A stretch of 45,564 nucleotides of DNA from Patescibacteria group bacterium (GTDB lineage: Bacteria > Patescibacteriota > Minisyncoccia > Phycocordibacterales > PALSA-1337), in NCBI GenBank assembly GCA_038065395.1, contig JBBTRB010000007.1, positions 1 to 45,564 of the forward strand, written 5' to 3'. A program made the translations under genes and the position numbers. Below are positions 15,967 through 45,310 of the stretch, piece by piece; the stretch's first letter is position 1, and each line of letters begins with the position of its first letter. The notes below the pieces were generated by a model. That model made no database searches. It saw nothing but the letters and a program-made list of their open reading frames with translations, and was not told the origin of the DNA.

Positions 15967-16040
15967 TGCGGGATCGTCTAATGGTAGGACAGCGGCCTTT
16001 GAAGCCGTTTATCTTGGTTCGAATCCAAGTCCCGCAGCCA
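15967..16040 (+). tRNA. tRNA-Gln(TTG)
   Basis: TGCGGGA/TCCCGCA acceptor stem, CT-TTG-AA loop, GGTTCGAATCC, encoded CCA. Confidence 0.96.
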
Positions 16041-26124: not shown

Positions 26125-26284
26125 AGGCCACACAAGCAAATTCTGTTTTTAGAAACCTGCGGAACTCGCTTCGTGTAATTAAAGGAAAACACCCCAATTA
26201 ATCCGCAATTGGGGTGTTTTCTAATAATTACTACTCGCTCAAACAGTCCTCGGTCTCTAAAAACAGAATTTGCTTGTGTGGCCT
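26125..26284. repeat. 160-bp nested inverted-repeat element
   Basis: Perfect 29-bp outer IR (26125-26153/26256-26284) and 15-bp inner IR (26185-26199/26207-26221). Confidence 0.85.
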
Positions 26285-26885: not shown

Positions 26886-26924
26886 AGTGATATAATGGAC
26901 GCCATATCATATAGATAAACAGAT

Positions 26925-26953
26925 CGCAGATCCCCGCCTTCGCGGGGATGACA
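26925..26953. repeat. REP-like palindrome (GTCATCCCCGC family) in the gap leader
   Basis: CGCAGATCCCCGCCTTCGCGGGGATGACA. Confidence 0.85.
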
Positions 26954-26971
26954 TAAGATAAAACCATACAC

Positions 26972-27997
26972 ATGAAAAAAATACGAGTTGCAATCAACGG
27001 TTTCGGACGCATTGGCAGAGCATTTGTCAAAGTGGCTCGTGAGAATCCTGATATCGAGGTAGTTGCCATCAACGATCTCGGCAATATCAACAACTTCGCC
27101 TATCTCCTGAAATATGACACCGCATATGGCGTCAGCCCTTTCGAAGTCTCAGCACAAGGCGACTCACTTGTCGTGGATGGTCATGCGATCAAGTTCATCT
27201 CCGAGAAAGAACCGACCAAGCTTCCATGGAAAGACATGGATATCGATGTAGTCGTAGAGTCTACTGGACTTTTTACTTCCAGCGAAAAAGCCAAGATGCA
27301 TATCGATGCTGGTGCCAAGCGTGTAGTTGTCTCTGCTCCAGTCAAGGATGATCCTGCTTCGGCGGTACAGGGTGTCACCGTGCTCATGGGCATGAATGAA
27401 GACAAGCTCAAAGACAGTCAGATCAGTTCCAATGCTTCGTGCACGACCAACGCTGGCTCACCACTCATCGCCATCCTCGACGAGGCTCTGGGTATCGAAA
27501 AGGCACTGCTCAACACTGTCCACGGTTACACAGCCTCTCAGTCGCTCGTTGACGGCCCAAGCAAGAAAGACCTTCGTGAAGGTCGTGCTGCCGCCATGAA
27601 CATCGTACCGTCCTCGACCGGTGCCGCTATCGCTGTGACCAAAGTCGCTACGCACCTCGCTGGCAAGTTCGATGGTATCTCGATCCGTGTGCCAGTTGTT
27701 ACTGGTTCGATCGTCGATGTGACATTCATCTCCAAGAAGAACACCACTGCCGAAGAGGTCAATGAAATCCTCAAGAAAGCCGCTGCAGACAAACGCTGGA
27801 AGGGGATATTCACCGTCACCGAAGAACCATTGGTCTCACATGATATTGTCGGCAACCCTCATGCTTCTATCGCAGATCTAGAGATGACACGTGTGGTAGA
27901 TGGTAACCTGGTCAAGGTCATGGCGTGGTATGACAACGAGATGGGGTATACGCATACATTGGTGAGACATGTTATTAAAGCAGGACAGTTAATATAA
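26972..27997 (+). CDS. gap: Glyceraldehyde-3-phosphate dehydrogenase (type I)
   Basis: INGFGRIGR, ESTGLF, SNASCTTN, WYDNE. Confidence 0.98.
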   Translation: MKKIRVAINGFGRIGRAFVKVARENPDIEVVAINDLGNINNFAYLLKYDTAYGVSPFEVSAQGDSLVVDGHAIKFISEKEPTKLPWKDMDIDVVVESTGLFTSSEKAKMHIDAGAKRVVVSAPVKDDPASAVQGVTVLMGMNEDKLKDSQISSNASCTTNAGSPLIAILDEALGIEKALLNTVHGYTASQSLVDGPSKKDLREGRAAAMNIVPSSTGAAIAVTKVATHLAGKFDGISIRVPVVTGSIVDVTFISKKNTTAEEVNEILKKAAADKRWKGIFTVTEEPLVSHDIVGNPHASIADLEMTRVVDGNLVKVMAWYDNEMGYTHTLVRHVIKAGQLI

Positions 27998-28010
27998 TTA
28001 AAAAATAAAA

Positions 28011-28439
28011 ATGGCTTTAGCGATAACTTTGATAGCAGTGTTCATAGGATTGCCTGCTTTTTTCCTGTTTGTTTTTGTATATCTACCTAAAACAATTCGT
28101 AGCTATCGCTTAAGGGTACTGGCACGAGAATTTAATCTTGATTTTCAAAATGATATGGAAAAAAGAAAATGGTGGAAGATATGGAATGATAAATCTCTTA
28201 ACGAAGAAGGTATCATGTCTAACCTTTTGAGGGGGAATATTGGAATACATGTGGTAGAAGTATTTGATACATATAAGGAACGTCGTAAGTTCTTTATGGG
28301 TGCAAATAGTTATTATTCAATTAGGTCAACAACGATAAGTGTTGACGGAATTAATAAAAAAATTTCTGACAGAGTACTTTTTTCAGGTTTTGCACCAATT
28401 AGAAAGATAAGAAAAGAGTTAGTTGATTTGACTAATTAG
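28011..28439 (+). CDS. AT-rich hypothetical protein with N-terminal TM (cargo 1 of the gap-tail array)
   Basis: 142-aa ORF between gap and the first gap-tail copy. Confidence 0.7.
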   Translation: MALAITLIAVFIGLPAFFLFVFVYLPKTIRSYRLRVLAREFNLDFQNDMEKRKWWKIWNDKSLNEEGIMSNLLRGNIGIHVVEVFDTYKERRKFFMGANSYYSIRSTTISVDGINKKISDRVLFSGFAPIRKIRKELVDLTN

Positions 28440-28592
28440 GCTTGCTATTAGACAGGAGTTTGCATATGATTGAATCGTCCATTGATAACAAAATAAGAAC
28501 ACCAACACGCCACCTCTTGAGTATCTGAATCATCGGATTTTCAAGAGGTGAGCGCGGGGAGGCTTTTTCTAAGATTGTGATAAAATATGTCC

Positions 28593-28676
28593 ATGAAGCT
28601 GACGTGGTACGATAATGAACTAGGGTATACGCACACTCTAGTCGAACACGTAATCAAAGCTGGCCGCCTAATATAA
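28593..28676 (+). other. Second copy of the gap 3' end, open micro-ORF MKLTWYDNELGYTHTLVEHVIKAGRLI
   Basis: 20/23 aa and 51/72 nt identical to gap 27926-27997. Confidence 0.9.
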
Positions 28677-28680
28677 AATT

Positions 28681-28845
28681 ATGAAAACTCTCATTACTAC
28701 CCTAATTCTAGTAGTCGTAATCTTGGCCGCAACCTTCCTTCCAATTTATAATGGTAAGGTCGGAGGTTGCGGGGTAGCTGGAGGTGGATGCTGGAATTAT
28801 AAGTTGAATCTTATTGAGTACATTAAATATAAGAATCAGCAATGA
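28681..28845 (+). CDS. 54-aa secreted or membrane micro-protein (cargo 2)
   Basis: MKTLITTLILVVVILAATFLPIYNGKVGGCGVAGGGCWNYKLNLIEYIKYKNQQ; hydrophobic leader and a Cys pair. Confidence 0.65.
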   Translation: MKTLITTLILVVVILAATFLPIYNGKVGGCGVAGGGCWNYKLNLIEYIKYKNQQ

Positions 28846-28919
28846 GTTGGTACGATAACGAGATGGGGTATGCGCATACGCTCGTGAGACATGTTATTGA
28901 GGCAGGTAGATTAGTGTAG
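28842..28919 (+). other. Third copy of the gap 3' end, open micro-ORF MSWYDNEMGYAHTLVRHVIEAGRLV
   Basis: 19/23 aa and 57/72 nt identical to the gap tail. Confidence 0.9.
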
Positions 28920-29039
28920 AAACCTCGGTTCACAGCCATCCAATTGATCTGAATCAATCTCCCGGGATCCTTCTATTGACTCTCGTACAAAAATAGTGTA
29001 TGGTGTTTTTGGAACGTTCTCAACAAAACACTGTATCCT

Positions 29040-29591
29040 ATGAAGAAAAAACTGTCTCGTAAGGTCACTCCCGTTACCCCAAGTAACGGCAAGCAGTTCT
29101 CGCAGTCACTCGACGCACTTTTCCGTGCTCGCACTCCGGTAGATGTGCATGATGTGCTCAGGACATGTTTGAATCGGGCGAATACATTGACTCTGATAAG
29201 GGCTCTCTATTCGTGGGTTGTTACGCCACATGGCCTGTCAGTATGTGACCTCAGTCAGTCCGAGTTCGTGCATACTCAGGTCATGAATAGATGGCAGGAC
29301 ATGGTCGAGTGCGAACTGGTTCGCATCAGAAATTCTGACAAACTGATGTCTGATTGGACTGTCTGGCGAGCTCTCCATGAACTCTCTCCGGCGGCAACCG
29401 ATCAGGGCAAATACATCCAGAACATCTGGGACAGTTTCTATTCATCGGGCACTCTATGCGCTCGAGCCCCACGTATCTACTACGACAGGTGCGGTATGGG
29501 GGATCCAGATTTTTACCCGCTGGTTCACGACGAAGTGCTCGCTCATCCGAGCAGATCTCAAGTTATGGAGCAGGTGGGCATTGCTGCGTGA
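29040..29591 (+). CDS. Hypothetical protein ending in -IAA
   Basis: Own TTGACT/TATGGT promoter and a downstream terminator. Confidence 0.65.
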   Translation: MKKKLSRKVTPVTPSNGKQFSQSLDALFRARTPVDVHDVLRTCLNRANTLTLIRALYSWVVTPHGLSVCDLSQSEFVHTQVMNRWQDMVECELVRIRNSDKLMSDWTVWRALHELSPAATDQGKYIQNIWDSFYSSGTLCARAPRIYYDRCGMGDPDFYPLVHDEVLAHPSRSQVMEQVGIAA

Positions 29592-29720: not shown

Positions 29721-30038
29721 ATGTCCACAATAACCCTAAAAAATGTTCCAACCAATCAAAGAATCGATGAGCTTACCGAGATCATGCTACGCGAGTTCGA
29801 TAAGGTATATGACAAATTTACTGATATAGACAGGAGGTTCGATCGTTTGGAGACGAGATTTGATGCTCTAGAAAAGAAGATAGACAAAAAATTTGATCTT
29901 ATTGATAAAAAGTTCGACCTCATAGACAAAAAGTTCGAGCTCATTGATAAAAAGTTTGATAGTATGGACAAGAAATTCGATCTGATTGCAGAGAACCTCG
30001 GATTAGTTCTCAACCACCTCAACATACAGCCAAAATAG
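29721..30038 (+). CDS. Small coiled-coil protein with DKKFDLI heptad repeats
   Basis: About 5 tandem (I/M)DKKF(D/E)x heptads. Confidence 0.75.
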   Translation: MSTITLKNVPTNQRIDELTEIMLREFDKVYDKFTDIDRRFDRLETRFDALEKKIDKKFDLIDKKFDLIDKKFELIDKKFDSMDKKFDLIAENLGLVLNHLNIQPK

Positions 30039-30052
30039 GGTATAATGTTCCC

Positions 30053-30514
30053 ATGAACACACAGACGATCATCCTCGCTTCCGACCATGCCGGGTTCAAG
30101 CTCAAAGAATCCATCAAATCTTTTTTGGAAAATAAGGGACTGAGTGTTATCGATGTTGGCGCACATACCCTCGTCGAAGGGGACGACTATCCTACCTATA
30201 TGGCAGATGCAGCCATGAAAGTGGCTCGTGACATCGCAGGGAATACTCGTGCCATCATCTTTGGTGGTTCGGGACAAGGTGAGGCCATGGTCGCCAATCG
30301 TTTCCCGGGAGTACGTGCAACCGTCTGGTATGGAGGGACAGATGAGATTATCAAACTCTCTCGCGAACACAACAACGCCAACATCCTCTCTATCGGTGCG
30401 CGGTTCGTGGACGAAAAGCAGGCAACTGAAGCTGTCGAACTGTGGCTCAGTACACCTTTTAGTGGAGATGAGCGTCATGAGAGGAGGAATAGTCAGATAG
30501 ATAGTATTGAGTAA
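30053..30514 (+). CDS. rpiB: Ribose-5-phosphate isomerase B
   Basis: ASDHAG, DDYP, GGSGQGE, REHNNAN, RHERR. Confidence 0.95.
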   Translation: MNTQTIILASDHAGFKLKESIKSFLENKGLSVIDVGAHTLVEGDDYPTYMADAAMKVARDIAGNTRAIIFGGSGQGEAMVANRFPGVRATVWYGGTDEIIKLSREHNNANILSIGARFVDEKQATEAVELWLSTPFSGDERHERRNSQIDSIE

Positions 30515-35233: not shown

Positions 35234-37351
35234 ATGCCCAACCCATCTCCTTTCAAAATAGCCACTACGTTGACCCCGGCAGGTGACCAGCCCAAGGCCA
35301 TCCAGACGCTCGTCGATGGTCTCAAAAAGGGCGATACGCGACAGACACTGCTAGGTGTTACCGGCTCGGGCAAGACATTTACCGCTGCCAACGTCATCGC
35401 CGCATATGGCAAGCCGACACTGGTGATCGCTCATAACAAGACACTTGCGGCACAACTGGCTCAGGAGTATCGAGAATTTTTCCCTAACAACGCCGTGCAC
35501 TACTTCGTCTCGTATTACGACTACTATCAGCCAGAGGCGTACGTGCCGTCTTCGGATACCTATATAGAGAAGGAGGCCATGATCAACGAAGAGATCGAAC
35601 GTCTCCGACACGCATCGACCCAGGCACTCCTGACCCGCAAGGATGTCATCATCGTAGCATCGGTATCGTGTATATATGGCTTGGGAAGTCCCGAAGAATA
35701 CGAGAAGGTCAATATGAAGGTCAGTGTCGGTATGGAGCTTTCGCGTGCAGAGCTCATCCGCAAACTGATCGATATACATTTCGAGCGCACGACTGCCGAC
35801 ATCAACCCTGGTCAGTTCCGTGCACTCGGCAATATGCTCGAAGTCATGCCGGTCAACGAGAAGACTGTCTATCGTATTGAATACAACGACACCAAAGTTG
35901 CGGACATTATCGAACTCGACCCCGTCAGTCGCGCAGTCAGAGCAACACATCGGTCAGTATTCATATTCCCGGCCAAACACTTCATCTCATCTGACGAACA
36001 AAGTGCTCGTGCGGTTGAGACCATAAAGGCTGAGCTCGAAGACCGACTCAAAGTATTGGAAAAGTCAGGCAAACTCCTCGAAGCCGAACGTCTCAAGCGT
36101 CGTGTCAAATACGACCTGTCGATGATCAAAGAGATAGGGTATACCAACGGCATCGAGAACTACTCGCGACATTTCTCCGGTAAGATGCCTGGAGAGGCTC
36201 CGGACTCCTTACTCGCATATTTCCCTCATAAGGCCGACGGTAGTCCGGATTTCCTGACGATCGTCGACGAGTCTCATGTCACCATCCCTCAGCTCAACGG
36301 TATGTATGCCGCCGACGCTTCGCGCAAAGAGACATTGGTTGAGTTCGGCTTCCGATTGCCTTCGGCCAAAGACAACCGACCTCTGAAGTTCGCCGAATTC
36401 CTGGAACGTATCGGACCGATGATATATACCTCGGCCACGCCAGGTAACTATGAACGTGAGACCAGCACCCAGGTCGCAGAGCAGGTCATCCGTCCAACAG
36501 GACTTGTCGATCCGCTCATAGAGATCCGACCGGTAGTGGAGAAAGTGAAGACAGGAATACGTCGTGAGAAAGACAGCGAGAGCGCAGATCCCCGCCTGCG
36601 CGGGGATGACGCCCACTACAAAGGCCAAGTCCACGACTTCATCGACGAGGCGCTCCTGACGATCAAGAAAGGCGACCGTGTATTGGCAACTACTCTGACC
36701 AAGAAGATGGCCGAAGATCTGTCAGAATTCCTCAAAGAAAAGGGGATCAAGACGAGCTATCTCCACTCTGATATCAAGACCATGGAGCGCATCACGATCC
36801 TGACGGATTTCCGTAAGGGTATCTATGACTGTATCGTCGGTGTGAACTTGCTCCGTGAAGGTCTCGACCTACCCGAAGTCTCGCTGATCGGCGTACTCGA
36901 TGCAGACAAAGAAGGCTTCCTCCGATCCGAGACCGCACTCATCCAGACGATCGGTCGTGCCGCGCGTAACTCCGAGGGCAAAGTCATCTTGTATGCAGAT
37001 ACGGTGACTGGCTCGATGCAACGTGCGATCGCCGAGACCAACCGTCGTCGAGATATACAGATCGCGCATAACACGAAACATGGCATTACTCCGAAGACCA
37101 TCAAGAAACTCATCCACGATATCACCGACCATCTCAAGAGCGACCATGAAAAGGCGGTCAGCGAACTAGTGAAGATCGACGAAGAACTTGCGCGTACCGA
37201 CCCCAAGAAACTCCTCAAGCAAAAAGAGGCAAGTATGGCCGAAGCTGTGCAAAACCTCGATTTCGAAACGGCAGCGCTTATCCGTGATGAGCTATTTGTG
37301 TTGCAGGAAAAGTTGGGGATTGGTGGGAAAGGTAAGAAAAAGAAGAATTAA
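35234..37351 (+). CDS. uvrB: Excinuclease ABC subunit B, with in-frame REP insertion
   Basis: GDQPKAI, GVTGSGKT, YYDYYQPEAY, DESH, NLLREGLD, QTIGRAARN, UVR domain. Confidence 0.98.
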   Translation: MPNPSPFKIATTLTPAGDQPKAIQTLVDGLKKGDTRQTLLGVTGSGKTFTAANVIAAYGKPTLVIAHNKTLAAQLAQEYREFFPNNAVHYFVSYYDYYQPEAYVPSSDTYIEKEAMINEEIERLRHASTQALLTRKDVIIVASVSCIYGLGSPEEYEKVNMKVSVGMELSRAELIRKLIDIHFERTTADINPGQFRALGNMLEVMPVNEKTVYRIEYNDTKVADIIELDPVSRAVRATHRSVFIFPAKHFISSDEQSARAVETIKAELEDRLKVLEKSGKLLEAERLKRRVKYDLSMIKEIGYTNGIENYSRHFSGKMPGEAPDSLLAYFPHKADGSPDFLTIVDESHVTIPQLNGMYAADASRKETLVEFGFRLPSAKDNRPLKFAEFLERIGPMIYTSATPGNYERETSTQVAEQVIRPTGLVDPLIEIRPVVEKVKTGIRREKDSESADPRLRGDDAHYKGQVHDFIDEALLTIKKGDRVLATTLTKKMAEDLSEFLKEKGIKTSYLHSDIKTMERITILTDFRKGIYDCIVGVNLLREGLDLPEVSLIGVLDADKEGFLRSETALIQTIGRAARNSEGKVILYADTVTGSMQRAIAETNRRRDIQIAHNTKHGITPKTIKKLIHDITDHLKSDHEKAVSELVKIDEELARTDPKKLLKQKEASMAEAVQNLDFETAALIRDELFVLQEKLGIGGKGKKKKN

Positions 37352-42979: not shown

Positions 42980-43945
42980 ATGTTGAGTCATCATCTACGC
43001 GTAGGAGTTATCCGTGGCGGGCTGTCTGACTACGAAGCCTCGCTTCAGAGTGGCGCAGATATCCTCTCGTCACTGCGAGAACATCATGGAGACACCTATC
43101 ATCCTCACGACATCTTCATCGACCGAGAAGGGCAGTGGCATATGCAAGGCAGGGCAGTGCGTCCCGAACAGGCACTGTCGATGATCGACGTGGCCTTCAA
43201 CGCACTCCAGGGTACCTATGGCGAAGACGGCAAGGTGCAACATCTCCTCGAGATGCACGGCATACCTTTTACCGGTACTGGTGCGCTCGGTTCGGCTGTC
43301 GGCACACACAAAATCCTCAAGAAGGGTGTTTTGTCCTCTCATGGCATCGCCGTGCCTCGGCATCTCGAGATCCGAGCAGAGGATATCCAGGGAGACTCAT
43401 CCAAGGTCGCTCAAGACCTATTTCGTTCGTGGCATTTGCCACTGGTGCTCAAGCCACTACGCGACACTTCTGCACACAAAATGTCTTACATCCGTTCGTA
43501 CGGCGAACTCCCTGAGGCGCTCCTTGCAGTCAGTCAGCATGGCGATGTGCTTGTAGAAGAATATATTCCCGGTATCGAAGCTATCGGTCATGTCGTAGAA
43601 GGATTCCGTGGCCATGAGCTCTATGCCTTGCCTGCGGTTGAGATCCATATCACTCCGACTGGCGAACAGAGGGAAGTCGTCCCAGCAGGGTTCTCGCCTG
43701 AACTCAAAAAACAGGTCGAAGAGACTTCACGTCTGGTGCACCAGCTTCTGGGTCTCAAACACTACTCCCAGACCCGCATGATCATCCATCCTCGCCGCGG
43801 GATCTATGTTCTCGAAGCTCGCACCCTGCCGCATATCGCCAAAACTTCACTCTTCTCTCGGGCCCTCGAAAGTGTCGGTGCCTCGATCCATGAATTGGCT
43901 GGTCACGTCGTCTCACTTGCGAATAAAGCAAAAAACAGGGTATGA
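42980..43945 (+). CDS. D-Ala-D-Ala ligase-like protein, catalytic residues altered
   Basis: VGVIRGG..YEASL, GTYGEDG.VQ, IPFTG, VLVEEYIPG; see findings. Confidence 0.85.
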   Translation: MLSHHLRVGVIRGGLSDYEASLQSGADILSSLREHHGDTYHPHDIFIDREGQWHMQGRAVRPEQALSMIDVAFNALQGTYGEDGKVQHLLEMHGIPFTGTGALGSAVGTHKILKKGVLSSHGIAVPRHLEIRAEDIQGDSSKVAQDLFRSWHLPLVLKPLRDTSAHKMSYIRSYGELPEALLAVSQHGDVLVEEYIPGIEAIGHVVEGFRGHELYALPAVEIHITPTGEQREVVPAGFSPELKKQVEETSRLVHQLLGLKHYSQTRMIIHPRRGIYVLEARTLPHIAKTSLFSRALESVGASIHELAGHVVSLANKAKNRV

Positions 43946-45091: not shown

Positions 45092-45310
45092 TTACATTGA
45101 ACTTGGAGAAGCCGAGGTACCGCAGCACTTGCAATCCTTCTTGTGAGTGAAGAGGAGATAGATAGCTGAGAGACCGACGAGGATATAAATGATCTTGGCG
45201 ATACTCATACCTACGAGGTCTGCAACACCCCAATCCAAGAGGCCAACGAGGAGCCAGTTGAGACCTCCGACAACAAGAAGAATAAACGCAACGGTGTGTA
45301 ATGCTTTCAT
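45092..45310 (-). CDS. DUF378 family small membrane protein
   Basis: LLVVGGLNWLLVG...IIYILVGLSAIY. Confidence 0.85.
   Translation of the reverse strand: MKALHTVAFILLVVGGLNWLLVGLLDWGVADLVGMSIAKIIYILVGLSAIYLLFTHKKDCKCCGTSASPSSM

Follow-up and report, generated by a model that had tools for sequence, protein, structure and literature searches.

Compact gene units between repeated gap tails at a gap-rpiB insertion hotspot in Patescibacteria

A known class of mechanisms comprises integration at a gene's 3′ end in which the gene is restored, accretion of the inserted elements in tandem, and integrase-less derivatives. In Streptococcus thermophilus, the integrative and conjugative elements (ICEs) ICESt1 and ICESt3 and the integrase-less cis-mobilizable elements (CIMEs) lie at the 3′ end of fda, where they integrate at the gene end and accumulate in tandem. 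Xer-type recombinases act on short core sites. To our knowledge, few mobile elements have been recognised in the tiny genomes of the candidate phyla radiation (CPR, Patescibacteria), and the way in which these bacteria gain genes is largely unexplained. In the tycheposon islands of Prochlorococcus, seven tRNA genes serve as targets of kilobase-long elements that carry integration and replication modules (10.1101/2020.12.28.424599). Here we describe the 3′ end of gap, the gene of glyceraldehyde-3-phosphate dehydrogenase (GAPDH), in a Patescibacteria genome (G000; 671,122 bases in 8 contigs, 94.7% complete). The window, that is, the whole stretch of 45,564 bases analysed, is the complete contig C7 of that genome.

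The end of gap is repeated twice behind the gene, with a different small open reading frame (ORF) between the copies. We document the site with its duplications, the integrase and prophage that relatives have there, the block in which strands are exchanged, and compact units of a single ORF co-oriented with gap. The gap 3′ end probably serves a lineage of integrative elements in these CPR bacteria as their bacterial attachment site (attB), the repeated tails being the attachment-site copies left by serial insertion.

The gap tails and the gap-rpiB hotspot

The gap gene (26972-27997, plus strand; 341 aa; Pfam Gp_dh_N 2.6e-37, Gp_dh_C 6.7e-56), 90% identical to the gene of the closest relative, ends in WYDNEMGYTHTLVRHVIKAGQLI and a stop codon, and the same 24 codons are found again at 28605-28676 and 28848-28919. 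Over 72 nt, tails 1 and 2 are identical at 51 positions, tails 1 and 3 at 57 and tails 2 and 3 at 48, while 3/23 and 4/23 residues are changed in the peptides of tails 2 and 3 with respect to tail 1. A repeat finder joins the three in one family (27921-27997, 28600-28676 and 28843-28919; 71% and 77% identity; spacing 679 and 243). A DNA search of all 671,122 bases returned these three copies only, with E values of 3.7e-35, 1.4e-14 and 2.3e-5 that exclude a chance origin. The G+C content falls from 0.51 (27850-27949) to 0.31 (27950-28049), hence within tail 1, and stays at about 0.3 up to about 28450; despite this foreign AT-rich end the gap reading frame is intact.

Contigs of the Logan collection cover the junctions of the array. 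In run X1, possibly the source sample, a single 8687-nt contig spans 27922-30100 with 0 differences, and run X5, which belongs to another study, covers 27536-28129 (gap to cargo 1), 28317-28776 (cargo 1 to cargo 2) and 28828-29021 (cargo 2 to downstream DNA), also with 0 differences. The layout is not an assembly chimera. Contigs of runs X1 and X3 break within tail 1 (27922-27950), which is expected since the gap ends of other organisms have words in common with it. Several contig joints (27957 to 28780, 27972 to 28605 and others) were considered as products of excision, but their sides measure only 23-35 nt, several other letters are present, and they fit the gap tails of other organisms; they speak neither for nor against excision.

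The family to which the genome belongs shows how general the arrangement is. The gap protein was searched in 101 genomes of the family, which are labelled Candidatus Taylorbacteria or Tayloriibacteriota and in some cases uncultured Saccharibacteria. Extra matches confined to the C-terminus were found in 29 of them (30 with one doubtful match), with up to seven tails in one genome (G043). The ancestral order is gap-rpiB-rpe-tkt, and in loci L017 and L026 rpiB begins about 10-30 nt past gap. Every extra tail falls between gap and rpiB. In the window the hotspot is closed off on its far side by rpiB (30053-30514, plus strand; Pfam LacAB_rpiB 1.8e-39), which comes next after gap in the ancestral order. 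When the order was sampled with about two genomes per family (201 in all), at least two matches were present in 11 of 198 genomes outside the family. Four of these 11 were checked: in G127 and G239, from a second family, gap and rpiB are separated by extra tails, and the fetched stretches of G221 and G251, with two matches each, showed one tail only.

The three tails, their positions and identities, and the ORFs at 28011-28439 and 28681-28845 behind tails 1 and 2 had been reported in the initial annotation, and the sequence, the ORF list and the repeat finder agree with it. Its suggestion that units of tail and cargo were inserted serially at the gap 3′ end is upheld. The same holds for its view of the tails as alleles from elsewhere: tails 2 and 3 differ at 19/46 nt in their right parts. 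Arrays do occur in relatives, this one is spanned by contigs and the layout varies across the clade, three points on which that proposal had been made to depend.

Integrase, prophage carrier and exchange block

Five genomes have distal tails, located 23-47 kb downstream of gap and on its strand, and in all five a tyrosine recombinase (PF00589) is placed 400-500 bp upstream of the first distal tail. Behind the distal tails of L035, L042 and L043, the three loci that extend far enough, stand rpiB, rpe and tkt, so the stretches of 23-47 kb are true inserts at the end of gap, with the integrase on their right. The genes of the 46-kb G052 insert include those for a terminase large subunit, a portal, a protease, a major head protein and a tape-measure protein, and this insert is a tailed prophage. 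The 23-kb insert of G059 has both ends in common with it. Integrases at least 82% identical are present in 6 of the 101 family genomes, and the 98% identity between those of two different genera points to recent transfer. A 63%-identical integrase in a genome labelled Nomurabacteria and a 60%-identical one on the IMG/VR contig L071 are each followed by a gap tail and rpiB.

The integrase consists of a SAM-like core-binding domain and a catalytic domain only. Its nearest models are those of XerA, XerC and XerD, below whose cut-offs it scores, and its nearest solved structures are those of XerA and XerD. On the integron-integrase models it reaches 42.5 bits (TIGR02249, cut-off 265) and 24.2 bits (NF011946, cut-off 435). 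A search of IMG/VR with the single protein gave no match; the search with an alignment gave 29 loci, and a gap tail follows the integrase only in L071. When the C-terminal 30-mers of all G000 ORFs were compared with the DNA downstream of the 54-56% identical and the IMG/VR integrases, nothing beyond L071 appeared. The more distant integrases (54-58% and below) presumably use other sites. A sister clade of integrases (36-58% identical) comprises L060 (G074:C1:181090-182016), G045, G058 and 27 IMG/VR loci (L072-L097); these often have the same 338-aa ORF in front and no gap tail downstream. In L035, L038, L039, L042 and L043 the same four genes lead up to the right attachment site (attR): a minus-strand ORF of 100 aa, the gene of a TrpR-like protein (YerC/YecD), an ORF of 332-338 aa that belongs to no known family, and the integrase gene.

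Nothing in G000 matches the phage integrase, in line with the initial annotation, which had seen no integrase at the array. The sole PF00589 gene of the genome (143.8 bits, contig C3) is of a class found in every genome, and the two cassettes of G000 are therefore orphans. The further statement that no integrase-bearing element occupies the site proved wrong at the level of the family, where in six genomes the integrase lies beside a displaced tail at the far end of a 23-47 kb insert and one such insert is a tailed prophage.

Comparison of the two ends of the five prophages locates the exchange of strands. In all five, the left attachment site (attL), attached to gap, has a host-type left part, TGGTATGA.AATGAGATGGGG, followed by TACAC and the phage tail, whose signature TLVNHVIAAGRLV is present in four of the five copies. 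The left part of attR, behind the integrase, is of phage type in all five (TGGTACCGATGTGA.ATGGGG and variants), and TATAC with a host-specific tail comes next. attL and attR share the block TGARATGGGGTA. The left part of tail 2 in G000 is of element type (GAACTAGGG), and this tail has GGGTATACGCA in common with tail 1. On the premise of a single exchange point for all of them, the block most likely narrows to GGGTA, about 19-23 nt inside the tail and within the G-Y codons. The initial annotation had placed the breakpoint at the WYDNE codons; similarity does start at the W codon, but the exchange point would lie in GGGTA.

The same switch is visible when 43 gap-attached tails are compared with 42 displaced ones. 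WYDNE is intact in 43/43 of the former vs 14/42 of the latter, and codon 2 is TAT in 40/43 gap-attached tails and TAC in 21/42 displaced tails. In the displaced tails conservation is low at nt 1-21 only and becomes gap-like again from nt 22. This profile implies that the left 21 nt of a displaced tail are the right end of the incoming element and were never translated as GAPDH, whereas the right 46-50 nt were once the real gene end. In G033 the tail with the phage signature is the fourth, behind three further units, which indicates that later insertions enter at the intact gene.

The three tails of the window can be read in these terms. Tail 1 (27926-27997, plus strand) is an attL-type copy, with a host-type left arm (27926-27943; TGGTAT, GC-rich codons) and the putative exchange block GGGTA at 27944-27948. 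Its AT-rich remainder, that is, the last ~46 nt of gap, appears to have been supplied by cassette 1. Tail 2 (28605-28676, plus strand) is a displaced copy with GGGTA at 28623-28627; its left arm (TGGTAC...GAACTAGGG) would be the right end of cassette 1 and the rest would come from cassette 2. Tail 3 (28848-28919, plus strand), also displaced, has the exchange block at 28866-28870 and a core that reads TATGC instead of TATAC. This A-to-G change hits tail position 25, where 98% of the gap-attached tails and 95% of the displaced ones have A. The right part of tail 3 is the one most like the relatives' own gap tails, with 83-86% identity to those of L005, L006 and L030. Among 85 tails, a nearest-neighbour search turned up no close donor for those of G000, the best right-part matches being 35-39/46 nt. 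A short partial palindrome (GGGGTATAC/GTATACCCC) can be discerned in some tail copies by reading alone.

Cassettes, cargo and the non-coding module

Cassette 1 (about 27949-28627) is AT-rich and contains a 142-aa ORF and a 170-nt module, and cassette 2 (about 28628-28870) contains one 54-aa ORF. The ORF of cassette 1 (cargo 1; 28011-28439, plus strand) lies 13 nt past the gap stop and has, by eye, a hydrophobic N-terminus. It belongs to no Pfam family and has no homologue in the fetched loci or in the metagenome contigs of JGI; an Atlas search returned its own record and hypothetical proteins. Cargo 2 (28681-28845, plus strand) starts 4 nt past the stop of tail 2 and ends 3 nt ahead of tail 3, again with a hydrophobic N-terminus. 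It has no Pfam family, and its only likeness, a weak one (E 0.039), is to a 63-aa cassette ORF of G059. The closest relative, G060, has a different small membrane ORF after its 90% identical gap gene, followed by a degenerate module with no tail behind. The differing cargo and the degenerate module imply that turnover is fast.

In the fetched loci, 36 units with lengths of 226-1827 bp were examined, 27 of them without module. In 26 of these 27 the longest ORF is on the gap strand, and in 21 of the 27 the ORF fills at least 60% of the space between tails. Among those 21, the ORF starts 3-24 nt past the tail stop in 19 and ends between -18 and +11 nt of the next tail in 17. As the initial annotation had anticipated, the cargo is variable, 66 of the 77 listed unit ORFs being singletons. 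Pfam assigned five of 47 main ORFs to AbiEii toxins (four with DUF6922 partners), one to PemK/MazF, one to ASCH and a few to other families. Most main cargo ORFs have no Pfam family, and many show by eye a hydrophobic N-terminal stretch. One AbiEii toxin-antitoxin cassette is found in both G033 and G071, bounded by tails, with 84.6% identity over 990 nt and different neighbours.

The non-coding module (28432-28604, plus strand) forms the right end of cassette 1 and occurs once in the genome (nhmmer E 8.7e-53). It begins with a promoter-like TTGCTA-17-TATGAT (28442-28470), which is followed by a long hairpin (28511-28528 with 28533-28550), a GC-rich GCGCGGGGAGGC with a T run, and an extended -10-like TTGTGATAAAAT (28575-28586; also written TGTGATAAAAT). 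Immediately downstream of the latter, at 28587, there is an ATG in frame with tail 2. The module is present in nine single-gene units of eight genomes with unrelated cargo, and a diverged form follows the integrase terminator, ahead of attR, in five prophages or large inserts. Its left boundary is constant across all the single-gene units and the prophages. In an alignment of 14 sequences, six pairs of the hairpin show compensatory changes, and G-U pairs occur on this strand only. An Rfam scan of 27900-29100 (E up to 10) gave chance-level matches only and none for the module, and a terminator scan found no site. The module pattern had four matches in metagenome contigs, three of them known arrays and one (L107) new, in which the module unit is the second. 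In G053 the same promoter-like site stands ahead of a real ORF. Judging from its sequence, the module may combine a terminator or a small RNA with an outward promoter, and it may also hold accessory sites for the recombinase. It would thereby keep the downstream cassettes and rpiB-rpe-tkt expressed after an insertion. In each element class, just past a promoter-like -10, there is an ATG that precedes the displaced tail by a few codons and shares its reading frame (window 28587-28676, as well as L030, L034, L036, L038, L039, L042 and L043), with a predicted peptide of 29-35 aa. This displaced-tail peptide may serve translational coupling to the next cassette.

Between tail 3 and rpiB, the window contains a 183-aa ORF (29040-29591, plus strand) of host-like G+C content that is missing in the closest relative. 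It has no Pfam family, no homologue in any fetched locus and no detectable tail bounding it, and it may be older cargo. It is followed by a 105-aa coiled-coil ORF (29721-30038) with five 21-nt tandem repeats (KKFDLID units); relatives retain a similar coiled-coil gene directly upstream of rpiB, behind their tail arrays. On the other side of gap, nested inverted repeats (26125-26284; 33-nt arms 97% and 25-nt arms 88% complementary) lie between a DEAD-box helicase gene and a 223-aa ORF without Pfam match. A GC-rich palindromic repeat (CHPRAGGDLRS in one frame), similar to repetitive extragenic palindromes, is located at 26921-26959, directly upstream of gap, at 36576-36623 and at many places on other contigs.

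The initial annotation had also recommended looking for other repeated gene tails, and when the whole of G000 was searched for C-terminal 30-mers that recur, further sites came up on contigs C1 and C4. At C1:1221-1985 (minus strand), the last ~17 codons of a 278-aa ORF (...LLKAVLSINEAIRSRGKK and stop) are found again about 660 bp downstream, with about 90% identity over 50 nt, and a ~170-aa ORF with the look of a membrane protein fills the space between the tails. On C4 a 36-nt repeat (35/36; ~43022-43058 and 45151-45187) corresponds to the 3′ end of a 316-aa ORF (...IDPMVFVGFWEE...), the copies being 2.1 kb apart with ORFs between them; this repeat may be another att duplication. From the C1 and C4 sites, the principle of tail, cargo and tail may extend beyond gap.

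Origin of the array and comparison with known systems

Taking into account: (i) the co-oriented packing of single ORFs between tails; (ii) the constant boundary of the module; (iii) the toxin-antitoxin cassette found in two contexts; and (iv) the simple Xer-type integrase, we propose a model of mobile cassettes for the gap site. In the model, the incoming element would bring its own copy of the last ~23 gap codons, and the Xer-like tyrosine integrase would exchange strands within TGARATGGGGTA, most likely at GGGTA. The gap gene would be completed again with the tail of the element, and the previous tail would be moved downstream behind it. Repeated insertion at the intact gap would build an array with the newest unit nearest to the gene; hence cassette 1 would be the newest, cassette 2 older, and tail 3 the ancestral end or an older one. 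The small units could be moved as circles by a phage-type integrase acting in trans, or through accretion with the phage, and would be transcribed with the gap operon or from the outward promoter-like sites of the module. The cassettes of G000 would at present be stranded, given the absence of the integrase and the mutated core of tail 3.

Several observations weigh against this model. All genomes are metagenome-assembled, and no excised circle or empty-site junction was seen in the Logan contigs. Of the 29 genomes that carry extra tails, 23 yielded no integrase of this clade, so that any action in trans must date to the past or have occurred in other cells. The only other recombinase found in G000 is a 528-aa serine recombinase (C3:75237-76823), which stands beside a cluster of P-type ATPase and metal-regulator genes and is unlinked to gap, but could have played a part. 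The AbiEii pair is the one cargo type that recurs between genomes, and the case for transfer at the level of cassettes rests mainly on this example. In four of the nine module-bearing units the longest ORF is on the opposite strand, and cargos 1 and 2, without detectable relatives in the fetched loci and the JGI contigs, are putative genes. Displaced tails are often decayed, with internal stops in 8/42 and truncation in L032, L047 and L050; such decay fits erosion as well as a working system.

Erosion is indeed the substance of one alternative, in which the small units are remnants of prophages or integrase-bearing elements that reached gap whole and shrank there, without any movement in the small form, through internal deletions that spared the gene beside attL and, in some units, the module beside attR. 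In cassette 1 the module is of the same sequence class as that found between the integrase and attR in the five prophages, and the 23-kb insert of G059, with the ends of the G052 prophage and no structural genes apparent in its unannotated ORF list, would show reduction in progress. The decay of tails, the degenerate module that G060 retains without a tail, the genomes without integrase and the lack of an observed circle are also in its favour. However, random deletions would yield neither a constant left boundary of the module in nine units nor co-oriented ORFs fitted tightly between tails in 26 of 27. Moreover, no cargo ORF matched proteins of G000 or other cargo, the toxin-antitoxin pair excepted, units without module contain no recognisable phage sequence, and the ORFs beside attL in G052 and G059 look unlike cargo, a comparison of first residues made by eye only. 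We consider this origin unlikely, while granting it an appreciable chance.

The initial annotation had also suggested homologous recombination after DNA uptake. In the form considered here, circularised foreign fragments with a gap tail, acquired by natural transformation, would duplicate the tails by RecA-type (Campbell-type) recombination without a site-specific recombinase. The dprA gene it pointed to is in the window, G000 has no integrase of the gap clade, and the tails offer 72 nt of 70-85% homology. Nevertheless, 72 nt at about 75% identity is a poor RecA substrate. The suggestion is disfavoured by the fixed switch point: host and element sequences change over in the same short block in the attL/attR pairs of all five prophages and in the G000 tails, and the conservation profile of the 42 displaced tails shifts sharply at nt 21/22. 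With the integrase physically linked to the gap site in relatives, this route seems quite improbable. The likelihood that the array is an artefact, due to strain-chimeric assembly or to local tandem duplication of the gap end, is negligible. The genome is a metagenome assembly and the X1 and X3 contigs break in tail 1, but contigs of two studies cross the junctions without a difference, the tails differ at 15-24/72 nt and enclose unrelated ORFs, and the same architecture recurs in dozens of independent assemblies.

The firm part of this account is that site-specific insertions, one after another, at a phage attB in gap left the tails behind as att copies, with cassette 1 as the newest unit. 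A wider reading can be put forward tentatively. It is possible that the CPR bacteria of this order host an integron-like form of gene capture in which a phage-borne Xer-like integrase uses the gap 3′ end both as docking site and as cassette site. Single-ORF cassettes with replacement tails would be stacked there, pass from genus to genus and be expressed along with the glycolytic operon, and most arrays would be stores without an integrase; the principle is perhaps general. The hotspot provides a concrete, sequence-defined route of gene gain, with an attB, a mapped exchange block, an integrase and a prophage carrier. Its dozens of compact cassettes, mostly for small membrane proteins and toxin-antitoxin pairs, could shape the cell surface or phage-host interactions, and the natural pair of recombinase and site is offered for organisms without genetic tools. 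If it is true that the cassettes are mobilised in trans, an integron-like system would have arisen independently of IntI and attC. We found no published account of gap as an attB or of cassette arrays in CPR/Patescibacteria, the supplements, perhaps with prophage tables, being outside the search; in PMC12455944 and PMC12911398 the terms integrase, glyceraldehyde and integration site have 0 matches.

Among the systems described, the ICESt/CIME family at fda is close in several respects. Both systems target a glycolytic gene at its 3′ end, which is restored, and both have att copies as direct repeats. Units without an integrase, with att copies on either side, stand beside or instead of an integrase-bearing element, and some carry the att-proximal arm sequence of that element. 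Cassettes 1 and 2 are, like CIMEs, bounded by tails and devoid of recombination and transfer genes, with one ORF each. As in integrated phages and islands, there are flanking direct repeats, a gene restored by the copy of the element and a short core of identity, the latter deduced from sequence, and an integrase is placed beside an att copy in relatives, not in G000. On the other hand, the units described here are far smaller (226-1827 bp, usually one ORF), far more numerous per site (up to seven tails), co-oriented and closely spaced. A tailed phage, and not a conjugative element, is the partner that bears the integrase, and the hosts are CPR bacteria.

The tycheposon islands, as presented in the available part of their description (10.1101/2020.12.28.424599), share with this hotspot the reintegration at one site that pushes older elements inward, the partial target copies, remnants and cargo, and a streamlined genome. 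There, too, elements bearing a tyrosine recombinase are rarer than islands. That part describes no single-ORF units between target copies such as those found here. The tRNA target with linked modules that characterises tycheposons is replaced here by a protein-coding one; the tRNA genes of the window, at 15967 and 43996, are far off.

Small integrase-less modules, short Xer-type sites and tandem accumulation are also found in the integrative mobile elements exploiting Xer recombination (IMEX) at dif and in the pdif modules of Acinetobacter plasmids. Unlike in these, the recombinase of the gap site is encoded by a phage and distinct from the single Xer-like gene of the host, and the site is in gap and not dif. 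The likeness to integrons that the initial annotation had drawn is a fair architectural analogy, although the arrays are not integrons in the strict sense, since there is no IntI. The arrays consist of co-oriented, mostly promoterless single-ORF cassettes that enter at the proximal end. In integrons and in clusters of attC sites lacking integron-integrases (CALINs), cassettes are likewise promoterless, co-oriented and mostly single-ORF, with one site each and entry beside an expressed upstream region, toxin-antitoxin cassettes occur (here AbiEii 5 and PemK 1 of 47), and integrase-less arrays are common. In contrast to integrons, the integrase of the gap site reaches 42.5 of the 265 bits required of an IntI and is borne by a phage instead of standing beside the array, the one PF00589 gene of G000 being on another contig, and the end of a coding gene, encoding 23 residues, takes the place of the folded attC. 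Hence, while the class of mechanism is a known one, the combination of an integron-like architecture without IntI, the end of a coding gene as cassette site, a phage as carrier of the integrase and CPR bacteria as hosts is unusual.

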